Source: Escherichia phage vB_EcoM_VR7
Sequence record: NC_014792.1
Strand: one strand, 5' to 3'
DNA length: 64,000 bases
The position numbers and the translations under genes were made by a program. Under the pieces are notes generated by a model. That model was given only the letters and a program-made list of their open reading frames with translations, did no database searches and had not been told where the DNA came from. Of this stretch, positions 20,118-64,000 are shown one piece after another; within the stretch, counting starts at the first letter, position 1, and every line of letters begins with the position of its first letter.

Positions 20118-20690
20118 TCAGCTTGTCAATTCGAGCCAATGTTTCCTGCATAAAGATACGTACGATTCATTCCCACCGACTAACACTTGCTCGCCGTCCT
20201 TTACAGCAGCACCGTCGATTACTCGAGCGGTCATGGTTGCTTTCCGGCCGCAATGGCAGACGCCCTTTAATTCAACCAGTTTATCCGAAATAGCCAGAAG
20301 TCTGGCTGAACCGGGAAATAACTGACCCCGAAAATCTGTTCTTAACCCGTAACACATAACGGGGATATTGTAATTATCAACCACTCGTGCTAACTGGTCA
20401 ATTTGCTCTGGTAACAAAAATTGAGCTTCATCAACCAGGACACAATGGATATCCTTTTGAGACTCGGCCCATTTATAGAATTCAAACAGGTTCATGTCGG
20501 CCGTTACCAGGTTTGCTTCCTGGCTAATACCAATACGTGATTTAATTTCAGATTCCGAGTCCCGATTATCAATAACAGGTTTTAGCAAAAGCACACTCAT
20601 TCCACGCTCTTTATAGGAATAAGCTGCAGTCAGCAATGAAGCTGTTTTGCCTGCATTCATTGCTGCGTAATGATAAATTAAACTCGCCAT
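20118..20690 (-). CDS. tk: Thymidine kinase
   Basis: 190 aa; P-loop MNAGKTASLL, CHCGRKAT zinc motif; matches remembered T4 Tk. Confidence 0.85.
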   Translation of the reverse strand: MASLIYHYAAMNAGKTASLLTAAYSYKERGMSVLLLKPVIDNRDSESEIKSRIGISQEANLVTADMNLFEFYKWAESQKDIHCVLVDEAQFLLPEQIDQLARVVDNYNIPVMCYGLRTDFRGQLFPGSARLLAISDKLVELKGVCHCGRKATMTARVIDGAAVKDGEQVLVGGNESYVSLCRKHWLELTS

Positions 20691-20699
20691 ATCACCTTC

Positions 20700-20903
20700 T
20701 TAAAGAGTATTCACATAAGCAATTAATTCGTTTTCTTTCTCATCAAACTGTTCAGCGATTTTTTCGTAATCTTCGGCGCTCACAGGACCCCATTCATCGT
20801 ATGATTGCATTCCAGAATTCTCTTCTAGAAGCTCATGGATAAGCTCAAACAATTTATCTTTTTGTTCTTTACTTAGGCTCATAACCATTGCACCTTTAAA
20901 CAA
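20700..20903 (-). CDS. Hypothetical protein
   Basis: 67-aa ORF. Confidence 0.4.
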   Translation of the reverse strand: MFKGAMVMSLSKEQKDKLFELIHELLEENSGMQSYDEWGPVSAEDYEKIAEQFDEKENELIAYVNTL

Positions 20904-21097
20904 TATTCATCTACGTGTTGGACACGTTTGTTTTTGTCAATAAAAGTATATTCAACATACTCGCCGATATACCACTTATCTACATTGTGCGGACTTTTTA
21001 TAGGACACTTGGTTGCCCGTGTTTCGGACCAGTGTCGAATAATTGTAGCTTTGTTTTTAGGGTCAAATGGGTGTGGATAATGTGCTTTCATAATCAA
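20879..21097 (-). CDS. Hypothetical protein
   Basis: 72-aa ORF. Confidence 0.4.
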   Translation of the reverse strand: MIMKAHYPHPFDPKNKATIIRHWSETRATKCPIKSPHNVDKWYIGEYVEYTFIDKNKRVQHVDEYCLKVQWL

Positions 21098-21542
21098 CTA
21101 CCATCAAATCAATGTCAGGAGTAAACATATCAATTAACCGGGAAACCTTATCCCAATCACCACCTGCAATACCACATCCAATCCTGGGAATATAAATCAC
21201 AGGCTTGAACAAAAGGGATTCTGCTTGTCGATTTAATTCTATCATACAATTTACTAAAGCGCCATAATCCAGATTTGGACCCGGTTCATACTGGGTATAA
21301 AGGTTATAGCACATACCAAATCCAGTTGGCTTATGTTTAAAAACGATAGACATATCACCGAGTTTTTCTCGGGAACCGTATTCAGTTGATGTTTTATCCA
21401 TTTCTAAAATTTTTGGGTAAGCCTTTGCCAGTTGGCCAGCAACGCCTGACCCCATTGTATGGAAACAATTACAGCCATGAGCTATGATGTTTCCTTCGAG
21501 AAAAAGGGCGACAATATCGCCCTTAATATAGTTAACAATCAT
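21063..21542 (-). CDS. Macro-domain protein (ADP-ribose binding/processing fold)
   Basis: 159 aa; IAHGCNCFHTMGSGVAGQLAKAYP and IPRIGCGIAGGDW resemble the two macro-domain signature segments. Confidence 0.65.
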   Translation of the reverse strand: MIVNYIKGDIVALFLEGNIIAHGCNCFHTMGSGVAGQLAKAYPKILEMDKTSTEYGSREKLGDMSIVFKHKPTGFGMCYNLYTQYEPGPNLDYGALVNCMIELNRQAESLLFKPVIYIPRIGCGIAGGDWDKVSRLIDMFTPDIDLMVVDYESTLSTPI

Positions 21543-21898
21543 TTAGAGTTCAATCCTCTGTTATAGGAATCGACTAACCTGTCAACCATACTGGTGCAGG
21601 CCGCTTTATATTTGGCACTCGACAGAATACAATCCATTTCAAATAGTTTCTTTTCATATTTGTTGGATAAAATACTCTTTTTCATAAGAGTGTGTTCAAC
21701 ATCATTTTGACCGTCTTTATATGCAGCAGTGAGTTTGGCACTGAACTGGATTACACAATCCACATTGCTTGATGCGCAATAATCTTTGGCCGTCCTCGTT
21801 GCATATTCTATGATGCTATTATTATCATCGCTCTGTACTGAAGCTATTCCTCCCGTGCTGAATACTAACCCTATGGCTAAAGTTATGACTCTTACCAT
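21539..21898 (-). CDS. Secreted hypothetical protein
   Basis: 119 aa; N-terminal signal-peptide-like MVRVITLAIGLVFSTGGIASV. Confidence 0.45.
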   Translation of the reverse strand: MVRVITLAIGLVFSTGGIASVQSDDNNSIIEYATRTAKDYCASSNVDCVIQFSAKLTAAYKDGQNDVEHTLMKKSILSNKYEKKLFEMDCILSSAKYKAACTSMVDRLVDSYNRGLNSK

Positions 21899-22441
21899 TT
21901 AATCCACCGTTTTTAATAGGCCTCGTGATTTTAAGTAGTTAGCTTTTTCTAGGACTTGCGAAGCATACGTATTTCCAGCTTTCACATTCCACCCTGCGTT
22001 ATATGATGATAGTGTTTTTCTTATGTCCCCCTTGTGGATGTTTAACCAGTATGAAAGCTCAATATAAGCCCAGCGTGCACTGTTCTCTCTCTTGCTTATC
22101 ATCTTGATTATTTCTTTATCTGTCATTGTCCACCCAACCTGTTTTACGCGCTCGCGCACGGTTGGAAGATAATTTTGGAATATACCATATGCATGATGCT
22201 TATCTTTATTTAATCCTGTATTAACACCAGCAGATGATTCCTGCCAGGTTAAACCAGCCATGATATATCCCAAACCATTATGTTGGTGCGGATTTTCTTT
22301 GTACTTACCATTTTTCTGGAACTGTTCTCCAAACGCATAAGCATATTGGAGGTTCTCCATTTGTTCATTACTGAAAGTAGGCTCTACGCTATGGGCAGAC
22401 ATACTAACTGTCAATAGTAAAGTGGCTATTACTTTTTTCAT
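21899..22441 (-). CDS. Secreted protein, possibly lytic-transglycosylase-like
   Basis: 180 aa; signal peptide MKKVIATLLLTVSMSAHS; TWQESSAG and AYGIFQ resemble SLT-domain motifs (weak). Confidence 0.45.
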   Translation of the reverse strand: MKKVIATLLLTVSMSAHSVEPTFSNEQMENLQYAYAFGEQFQKNGKYKENPHQHNGLGYIMAGLTWQESSAGVNTGLNKDKHHAYGIFQNYLPTVRERVKQVGWTMTDKEIIKMISKRENSARWAYIELSYWLNIHKGDIRKTLSSYNAGWNVKAGNTYASQVLEKANYLKSRGLLKTVD

Positions 22442-22451
22442 GAATTCCCCA

Positions 22452-22910
22452 TTAGATATAAATCACTTTTGTGCTAATTTTTCCTTCCAGACGATTAGAG
22501 TTAACAAACGCCATACGACAACACATGGTTGGAGACTTCCCAGGAAGAGCTGGGTTAACTGTCATTCCTAACCATAAGTTCTTGTCTGTGATTTCCAGAC
22601 GAAGTGGACGGTAGTTCACATTCGGGTCAATTTGTGCTTCAACTTCCGGGAGTGGTTTCATCTCCAGGAATTCAACAATTTCTTTTACATGTGGTGTGAT
22701 TTTTCCAAACAAGTCAAAAACATATTGTTCGTCAATTTCACGTTGGATTGCACGGTCCAACAGGTGTGGACTGTACTTAATGAAGAATGCTTCAAGGCCT
22801 GCTTCTTTACAAGCCTTGTTGATAGCATTATTAATTTTGAGGAACTCCGTTTCAAAAATACGACGAAGTTTATTGCGGCGAATGTAAACACTTGAATCGA
22901 TAGTAGTCAT
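22452..22910 (-). CDS. regB: Endoribonuclease RegB
   Basis: Track ORF trimmed to Met at 22910 (upstream part is translated promoter); MTTIDSSVYIRRNKLRRIFETEF...LLDRAIQREIDEQYVF matches remembered T4 RegB. Confidence 0.8.
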   Translation of the reverse strand: MTTIDSSVYIRRNKLRRIFETEFLKINNAINKACKEAGLEAFFIKYSPHLLDRAIQREIDEQYVFDLFGKITPHVKEIVEFLEMKPLPEVEAQIDPNVNYRPLRLEITDKNLWLGMTVNPALPGKSPTMCCRMAFVNSNRLEGKISTKVIYI

Positions 22911-22933
22911 GATTATCTCCTTTTGTTTGATGG

Positions 22934-22967
22934 GATAATCATAACTCATTTCAACCTGCTTGTACAC
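22934..22967 (-). promoter_or_regulatory. Early promoter-leader cassette upstream of regB
   Basis: Minus sense GTGTACAAGCAGGTTGAAATGAGTTATGATTATCCCATCAAACAAAAGGAG. Confidence 0.5.
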
Positions 22968-62337: not shown

Positions 62338-64000
62338 ATGGCTTTATTATCCCCGGGCATTGAGCTCAAAGAAACAACGGTCCAAAGCACTGTTGTTCGT
62401 AACGCGACGGGTCGTGCGGCGCTGGTTGGTAAATTCCAGTGGGGCCCAGCTTTCCAGGTAACTCAGATTACAAACGAAGTGGAACTTGTTGATTTGTTTG
62501 GTGGTCCGAACAATATCACAGCTGACTACTTTATGAGTGGAATGAACTTCCTTCAATATGGTAATGACCTGCGCACAGTTCGTGTAGTTAACCGCGACCA
62601 CGCTAAAAACGCATCCCCGGTAGCAGGGAACATCGAAAGTACAATCGCTACTGCAGGTTCTAACTATGCAGTCGGTGACGTTATCCAGGTTAAACACAAC
62701 CAGACTGTTGTTGAAACTTCTGGCCGTATTACCAAGGTTGACGTTGACGGGAAAATCCTCGCGGTCTTCATTCCGTCTGACAAAATTATTGCCTTTGCAA
62801 AATCTGTAAACCAGTATCCGGACCTTGGTCCAGCGTGGACTGCTGAAATCCTGACCACTTCTTCAGGTGTGTCTGGTACGATTACCCTTGGGAAAATTGT
62901 CACCGATTCTGGTATCCTGTTGACCGAAGCAGAAAATAGCGAAGAAGCTATTACCTCTTTGGAATTCCAGGCTTCCCTGCAGAAATATGCAATGCCGGGT
63001 GTTGTTGCTCTTTATCCTGGTGAAATCGGCTCGACTCTCGAAGTTGAAATCGTTTCCAAAGCTGCATATGATGTTGGCGCTTCGAAGATGCTTGACATTT
63101 ATCCGAATGGTGGTTCCCGTGCTTCTGTTGCTCGTGCGGTGTTTAACTATGGTCCGCAGACTGACGACCAGTATGCAATCATCGTTCGTCGTGATGGTGC
63201 TATCGTTGAAAACGTTGTTCTGTCAACCAAAGAAGGCGATAAAGACGTTTACGGCAACAACATTTATCTGGACGACTACTTTGCAAAAGGTACTTCCAAT
63301 TACATCTATGCAACTTCTCTGAACTGGCCAAAAGGCTTTGCAGGCATCATCAATCTGATGGGCGGTATTTCTGCAAACGACCAGGTTACTGCTGGTGATT
63401 TGATGCAAGGTTGGGACCTGTTTGCTGACCGTGAAGCACTGCATATTAACCTGCTTATCGCTGGTGCAGTAGCTGGTGAAGGTGATGCAACCGCTTCAAC
63501 TGTTCAGAAGCACGTGGTTTCTATCGCTGACGAACGTCAGGATTGCCTGGCATTTATCTCTCCACCAAAAGGCCTTCTGGTTAACGTTCCTCTGACCCGT
63601 GCAGTGGATAACCTGATTGACTGGCGTACAGGTGGCGGCTCATTCGATACTGATAACATGAATATCAGCACGACTTATGCAGCGATTGATGGCAACTATA
63701 AATATCAGTATGATAAATATAACGACGTTAACCGTTGGGTTCCTCTGGCAGCTGATATGGCTGGTCTGTGTGCTCGTACTGATGATGTTTCTCAGCCTTG
63801 GATGTCTCCGCCCGGTTATAACCGTGGTCAGATTCTGAACGTACTGAAATTGGCTATCGAACCTCGTCAGACCCAACGTGACCGCATGTATCAAGAAGCT
63901 ATCAACCCGGTTGTTGGTTTCGCAGGTGGTGATGGTTTTGTTCTTTACGGTGATAAGACTGCAACTAAAGTTCCATCTCCGATGGACCATATCAACGTTC
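62338..64000 (+). CDS. 18: gp18 tail sheath protein, N-terminal ~554 codons; 3' end beyond window
   Basis: Not in ORF track (no stop in window). ATG at 62338 after AGAGGA; MALLSPGIELKETTVQSTVV... matches remembered T4 gp18. Confidence 0.9.
   Translation, partial: MALLSPGIELKETTVQSTVVRNATGRAALVGKFQWGPAFQVTQITNEVELVDLFGGPNNITADYFMSGMNFLQYGNDLRTVRVVNRDHAKNASPVAGNIESTIATAGSNYAVGDVIQVKHNQTVVETSGRITKVDVDGKILAVFIPSDKIIAFAKSVNQYPDLGPAWTAEILTTSSGVSGTITLGKIVTDSGILLTEAENSEEAITSLEFQASLQKYAMPGVVALYPGEIGSTLEVEIVSKAAYDVGASKMLDIYPNGGSRASVARAVFNYGPQTDDQYAIIVRRDGAIVENVVLSTKEGDKDVYGNNIYLDDYFAKGTSNYIYATSLNWPKGFAGIINLMGGISANDQVTAGDLMQGWDLFADREALHINLLIAGAVAGEGDATASTVQKHVVSIADERQDCLAFISPPKGLLVNVPLTRAVDNLIDWRTGGGSFDTDNMNISTTYAAIDGNYKYQYDKYNDVNRWVPLAADMAGLCARTDDVSQPWMSPPGYNRGQILNVLKLAIEPRQTQRDRMYQEAINPVVGFAGGDGFVLYGDKTATKVPSPMDHINV

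Follow-up and report, generated by a model that had tools for sequence, protein, structure and literature searches.

A small gene between tk and regB in a T-even phage genome codes for a macro-domain protein of 159 residues, and the function that we favour for it, at a probability of roughly 70%, is to clear phage DNA of the ADP-ribose placed by DarT2, through a Gln-type mechanism. By sequence and gene order it is orthologous to T4 tk.4, which has recently been named adfM, and it represents this gene in Gaprivervirus (VR26-type T-even phages). It is an already known gene: it is annotated in the record of the related phage VR26, and its syntenic T4 counterpart carries an A1pp motif and has a published anti-DarTG2 phenotype.

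The gene was analysed within a window of 64,000 nucleotides, the whole stretch of DNA under study, and the features that matter here are collected in Table 1. The open reading frame runs from an ATG to a stop codon at 21063-21065 on the minus strand. The original prediction had placed a 159-residue macro-domain protein at this site on the strength of two quoted segments; both are found exactly in the translation, and the strand, which had been left out, is minus. Its location in the tk-regB interval is also correct, with both flanking genes recognized by Pfam and all genes from tk to regB lying on the same strand. The start codon overlaps the stop codon of vs in the sequence ATGA. At the other end, the macro gene runs 29 nt into the start of the tk.3-like (DUF7202) gene (21063-21091), whereas the overlap in T4 is 4 nt. 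A scan for sigma-70 promoters and terminators near the gene gave a count of 17 compared with 13.8 in shuffled sequence, which is not above background, and for this reason no promoter of its own is claimed for the macro gene.

Table 1. Features in and around the macro-domain gene (positions in the window).
Feature	Position	Strand	Basis or remark
tk	20118..20690	minus	Pfam TK, E 4.5e-58
DUF7438 protein gene	20700..20903	minus	Pfam/PHROG assignment of window ORFs
DUF7202 protein gene (tk.3 homologue)	20879..21097	minus	Pfam/PHROG assignment of window ORFs
tk.4/adfM-type macro-domain gene	21063..21542	minus	ORF list; 159 aa, ATG to stop
IPRIGCGIAGGDW, residues 118-130, second (diphosphate-binding) glycine-rich loop	21153..21191	minus	P119, G122, G124 and W130 invariant
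NLYTQ, residues 80-84, strand with invariant Gln84	21291..21305	minus	alignments to DarG, TARG1 and SCO6735
IAHGCNCFHTMGSGVAGQLAKAYP, residues 20-43, first ADP-ribose-binding segment	21414..21485	minus	H22, G23, N25, C26, G33 and A35 invariant
vs	21539..21898	minus	PHROG 'valyl tRNA synthetase modifier'
Putative Shine-Dalgarno GAGGA	21554..21558	minus	11 nt upstream of the macro ATG, within the 3' end of vs; proposed from the upstream sequence
vs.1-like protein gene	21899..22441	minus	window ORFs with Pfam/PHROG
regB	22452..22967	minus	Pfam REGB_T4, E 5.7e-72

Two of the neighbouring genes deserve a brief comment of their own. The mechanically called regB frame starts with a GTG and has 171 residues, but the Pfam REGB_T4 match begins only with residue 23, and in VR26 the annotated protein has 152 residues; the real start is therefore probably an internal ATG (MTTIDSS...). 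The vs.1 homologue has a hydrophobic N terminus resembling a signal peptide and a weak match to the SLT lytic-transglycosylase profile (E 0.024, below the cutoff), and its homologues in some phage records are labelled 'SLT domain-containing' or 'lytic transglycosylase domain-containing protein'.

The relation to T4 is supported by both sequence and gene order. Over 5 kb around the macro gene, the DNA shares 99.4% identity with its closest genome record, that of Escherichia phage vB_EcoM_VR26 (Tevenvirinae, genus Gaprivervirus), which labels the gene gp112, 'phosphatase; similar to bacteriophage T4 Tk.4'. T4 Tk.4 (NP_049723) aligns with the 159-residue protein over 155 residues with no gaps, at 59% identity and 74% positives (E 6e-71), and the order tk.3-tk.4-vs-vs.1-regB, all on one strand, is common to the window, the T4 record and the VR26 record. 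In the T4 reference genome, tk.4 is annotated as 'phosphatase; Tk.4; contains A1pp phosphatase motif', A1pp being the older name of the macro domain. The novelty once claimed for the gene, on the premise that T4 has no macro domain at this position, is thus lost, because T4 has one at exactly the same place, between tk.3 and vs. It is worth noting that the identity to VR26 varies along the window: it is 99.2% over positions 1-600 and only 94.3% over positions 63401-64000, so that the window comes from a mosaic relative and not from VR26 itself. The window holds only two tRNA genes, Arg(tct) and Met(cat), which are adjacent at 34571-34726 on the minus strand (ARAGORN and Rfam agree); the tRNA cluster of T4 has eight.

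The assignment to the macro domains, as originally predicted, has been upheld at the level of profiles and of predicted structure. The Pfam profile Macro (PF01661) scores 35 bits on the protein, where 22 is the gathering cutoff, with an E-value of 1.5e-8 and over profile positions 2-117 of 118, and PHROG 335 ('phosphatase') matches with an E-value of 3e-70. The sequence matches in the PDB include BT1257, yeast Poa1p, SCO6735, the macrodomain of M. tuberculosis DarG, and human TARG1. The AlphaFold2 model, built on an input alignment of 67 sequences, has a mean pLDDT of 94.4 and a pTM of 0.89, and confidently predicts a three-layer alpha/beta/alpha macro fold. When this model was compared with the PDB using Foldseek, 173 matches were obtained at E<=1e-3, and among the matches listed all are macrodomains or designed enzymes on a macro scaffold. 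The best of them is TARG1 (E 7e-10, TM 0.72-0.81), and a TM range of 0.68-0.73 was obtained for the top matches TARG1, Poa1p, BT1257 and the DarG macrodomain. Both of the computational checks proposed with the prediction, the profile search and the structure prediction, thus arrive at the macro fold and at no different one. Taken together, the profile, PDB sequence and Foldseek matches place the protein in the ALC1/TARG1/DarG/Poa1p-like branch of the macrodomains, and its two glycine-rich loops predict the binding of ADP-ribose.

Given these profile scores and the number of homologues, the match is not one of chance. A set of 5.8 billion proteins contains 784 homologues of the 159-residue protein, an exhaustive search returned 6,221 cluster representatives at E<=1e-3, and of 50,697 phage records searched with tblastn, 2,783 contain a homologue. 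Megablast against 5,426 complete E. coli genomes found nothing that matches the macro-gene region, and a prophage or host origin of the region was ruled out on this ground.

The residues of the presumed active site are well conserved and define what kind of macrodomain this is. H22, G23, N25, C26, G33, A35, D49, N80, Y82, Q84, P119, G122, G124 and W130 are invariant in alignments of 45 and of 67 sequences, and the strict invariance of H22, N25 and Q84 across the phage homologues suggests that catalysis is under selection. In the first segment, N25 is the counterpart of the Asn conserved in the VNxVG motif of DarG. The second loop aligns with PRIGCGLAGG(T/K)W of SCO6735 and BT1257 and with PRIGCGLDRLQW of TARG1. 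The NLYTQ strand between them was aligned by profile-profile comparison, as the phmmer pairwise alignment with BT1257 sets this strand out of register. When the family profile was compared with the DarG macrodomains and PhiKZ gp104 using hhalign (probability 98.8%), NLYTQ84 fell on NFPTK, so that Gln84 takes the place of K80, the catalytic Lys of DarG. The same method puts Q84 on K84 and A126 on D125 of TARG1, the sequence of which was verified. With SCO6735, hhalign and BLASTP both pair H22/N25/Q84 with H24/N27/Q85, in a numbering that was verified against the residues named in the SCO6735 paper. On these alignments, 'Gln-type macrodomain' is the description that fits the protein best.

The strongest indication of what such a protein does in the phage comes from recent work on T4. 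In a T4 transposon library (Tn-seq) on a DarTG2 host, tk.4 was the single significant match, and a clean tk.4 knockout was sensitised to DarTG2; the authors gave it the name adfM (anti-DarT factor, macrodomain) and proposed that it removes ADP-ribose from DNA (bioRxiv 10.1101/2025.11.20.689424, November 2025). In the same study, T4 could do without tk.4 on plain E. coli K-12, and the gene became important only in the presence of DarTG2. This evidence is genetic, from one preprint, and was obtained in M9 glucose at 30 C. T4 without adfA and adfN had been found to be still resistant to DarTG2, and further T4 anti-DarTG factors were suggested by the authors of that work (PMC11825919). Reversal of DarT-type DNA ADP-ribosylation had been offered as one possible function in the original prediction, and it now stands as the best-supported one, because the T4 orthologue is required for resistance to DarTG2, although the idea itself is already published. 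The best match of the 159-residue protein in both NCBIfam and PADLOC is DarG.

The mechanism we propose would work as follows. The gene would provide a stand-alone macrodomain ADP-ribosyl hydrolase early in infection. Upon infection, DarT2 would be released from the host DarTG2 system and would ADP-ribosylate thymidines in single-stranded phage DNA, thus blocking replication. The phage macrodomain would hold the ADP-ribose moiety with its two glycine-rich loops and cleave the bond between ribose C1'' and thymine, so that normal DNA is restored. In a site of the SCO6735 type, made of His22, Asn25 and Gln84 and lacking the catalytic Lys of DarG, the Gln would position the substrate and a water molecule would start the hydrolysis.

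Some features of the site do count against this function. The catalytic Lys of DarG and TARG1 and the Asp of TARG1 are replaced by Q84 and A126, and K80A is known to inactivate DarG (PMC5179494). We have nevertheless dropped the missing Lys as an argument against DNA de-ADP-ribosylation, because SCO6735 has the same Gln, depends on it, and cleaves ADP-ribosyl-thymidine: it efficiently reverses the thymidine ADP-ribosylation by DarT both in vitro and in cells, while its Q85A and Q85E variants are inactive (PMC9411070). A second point against is that other elements of SCO6735 are not kept. Of its two substrate-contacting Lys residues, Lys34 is replaced by Ser32, and the loop following Gln84, which in SCO6735 is extended and mobile, is 5-7 residues shorter than its counterpart and has no equivalent of the other, Lys89. 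Net charge and pI were also considered as a proxy for DNA binding and were found uninformative, the PhiKZ AdfM, which is active on DNA, being equally acidic. We infer hydrolysis of ADP-ribosylated DNA for the 159-residue protein and for T4 Tk.4 itself. Outside the window, the VR26 genome has a gene at 128984-129442 whose annotation notes a similarity to T4 30.3, also known as adfN, the anti-DarTG1 factor of the NADAR type; going by annotation only, a VR26-type phage probably has both an anti-DarT1 and an anti-DarT2 enzyme.

The substrate, DNA-linked ADP-ribose or ADP-ribose-1''-phosphate, is not something that the amino acid sequence can fix by itself, because its relatives include a proven ADP-ribose-1''-phosphate phosphatase, which is about 40% identical and has the invariant residues in common with it. 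This relative leads to the first alternative, in which the protein is mainly a phosphatase of the Poa1p/Adpp type that converts the ADPR-1''-phosphate made by aRES/RES NADases to ADPR and counters a defence based on NAD+ depletion. The RefSeq label 'phosphatase' and the shared PHROG 335 agree with such an activity, and Poa1p is among the top matches in both sequence and structure. Vibrio phage Cody gp176 is 39-43% identical to the 159-residue protein (by tblastn, 43% over 120 residues, E 1e-21), has H22, N25 and Q84 in common with it, and is 98.1% identical to the Adpp of Vibrio phage Gary, which, when purified, turns ADPR-1P to ADPR (bioRxiv 10.64898/2026.01.28.702374, January 2026). As described in the same preprint, the aRES defence NADase produces ADPR-1''-phosphate, Adpp belongs to an Adps-Adpp-Namat operon known as NARP1-AP, and counter-defence needed all three genes of the operon, whereas the neighbours of the gene here are tk.3 and vs. 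Neither Adps nor Namat is annotated in VR26, and tblastn searches with the Cody Adps and Namat over the window and the rest of the VR26 genome gave best E-values of 0.5 and 1.1, respectively. The absence of Adps and Namat from these sequences, together with a much closer and syntenic T4 orthologue that has a DarTG2 phenotype, leads us to favour the AdfM role over that of Adpp. The identification as the NARP1-AP phosphatase was accordingly rejected, real as the homology is, and a mainly phosphatase function is unlikely, even if the protein may have a secondary phosphatase activity.

The operon arrangement can be seen elsewhere among the homologues. In Cody (NC_055849, 3132-6138 of the stretch examined) and in Acinetobacter phage vB_AbaM_14/CRR8 (904-4474), the homologue adjoins genes labelled 'ribose-phosphate pyrophosphokinase' and 'nicotinamide phosphoribosyl transferase', and the gene order in Cody is that of the published NARP1-AP operon. 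The arrangement in Cody is hidden by the RefSeq labels, and PHROG 335 'phosphatase' merges proteins of the Adpp type with those of the Tk.4/AdfM type.

A second alternative concerns ADP-ribose on proteins. The genes alt, modA and modB are present in VR26, and two structural relatives, TARG1 and SCO6735, also hydrolyse Glu/Asp-linked ADP-ribose on proteins; one could thus picture an enzyme that trims the marks of the phage Alt, ModA and ModB or removes those set by host ADP-ribosyltransferases. The Alt and Mod enzymes, however, modify arginine, and macrodomains of the class to which the 159-residue protein belongs are known for acting on ester- or thymidine-linked ADP-ribose and not on the Arg-linked form. 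With the dispensability of T4 tk.4 on plain K-12 also weighing against it, we regard this role as very improbable.

A similarly low probability is given to the idea that the protein neutralises DarT2 mainly by binding, as a stoichiometric mimic of the antitoxin, or serves as an ADP-ribose binding module devoid of catalysis. The idea draws on the finding that the catalytically dead Q85A variant of SCO6735 still inhibits DarT in vitro (PMC9411070) and on the phage factor AdfB, which acts on DarT through direct interaction (PMC11481870). What speaks against it is, first, that the 159-residue protein has no part corresponding to the C-terminal domain with which DarG binds DarT, covering only positions 2-147 of 338 in the NCBIfam DarG profile and 3-144 of 329 in the PADLOC one, and second, that the macro domain of TaqDarG carrying K80A does not inhibit DarT when alone (PMC5179494). 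The selection on catalysis suggested by the invariant H22, N25 and Q84 points in the same direction.

With DarT2 reversal as the preferred function, a broader and more tentative proposal can be put forward. The T-even Tk.4/AdfM may be no copy of DarG but represent a Gln-type Poa1p/SCO6735/Adpp lineage that was recruited independently of the Lys-type 'AdfM' of PhiKZ, and its one site, of His22, Asn25 and Gln84, may cleave any leaving group at ribose C1'', that is, both ADP-ribosyl-thymidine and ADPR-1''-phosphate. We consider this proposal possible, if doubtful. Should it be true, one small protein would counter two unrelated defences, DarTG2 and the aRES-type NADases.

There is also a practical lesson for annotation. 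The name AdfM was given independently to two proteins, the DarG-like PhiKZ gp104 with its Lys and the Gln-type T4 Tk.4, so it now covers two macrodomain lineages, while the T-even lineage is of the same family as the Adpp phosphatase. For these reasons, labelling a protein 'phosphatase', 'AdfM' or 'Adpp' by homology alone is unsafe unless the genomic context is taken into account.

We would like to end with a comparison of the protein with the known systems to which it is related. Those that share its type of active site are SCO6735 of Streptomyces coelicolor (PDB 5E3B) and BT1257 of Bacteroides (2AFC/2FG1), both ALC1-like macrodomains in which, as here, a Gln replaces the catalytic Lys. SCO6735 matches the 159-residue protein with an hhalign probability of 98.7% and a BLASTP E-value of 4e-14 at 26% identity, and the PRIGCG(I/L)AGGxW loop is nearly identical in the two. 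SCO6735 is, however, a basic protein (pI 9.7) encoded on a bacterial chromosome and placed under DNA-damage control, while the phage protein has a pI of 5.1. Adpp of Vibrio phage Gary and Poa1p are members of the same family, but Adpp is encoded in an Adps-Adpp-Namat operon and the window gene is not.

The DarG macrodomains of M. tuberculosis (5M3I) and T. aquaticus (5M31) share the fold and the clade with the phage protein (Foldseek TM 0.71-0.72), and the presumed substrate of the latter, DarT2-modified thymidine, is the same as that of DarG and PhiKZ gp104. Unlike DarG, the phage protein has no adjacent darT, its neighbours being vs and the tk.3 homologue, and it has a Gln where DarG and PhiKZ gp104 carry the catalytic Lys of FPTK. 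Its score of 30.9 bits against NCBIfam DarG (NF048014) is below the equivalog level, for which the cutoff is 250. PhiKZ gp104, which was shown to remove ADP-ribose from DarT2-modified DNA in vitro (PMC13309987), is in turn a close relative of DarG: it matches 5M3I with an E-value of 9e-25 and scores 133 bits with the PADLOC DarG profile, compared with 30 bits for the 159-residue protein, and BLASTP aligns only 31 residues between the two phage proteins. The two belong to distinct macrodomain lineages that have converged on one role.

The closest characterised counterpart remains T4 Tk.4, which shares with the 159-residue protein its PHROG, its position and orientation, and the motifs NLYTQ, HGCNC and PRIG.G. 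The two differ in several details. The protein described here is longer by four C-terminal residues and has GCGIAGGDW in the second loop where T4 Tk.4 has GAGIGKGNW, and, besides the longer overlap with tk.3, its locus is missing the tk.1 homologue. The host phage of the one is a Gaprivervirus and that of the other a Tequatrovirus, and the two proteins are 41% diverged.
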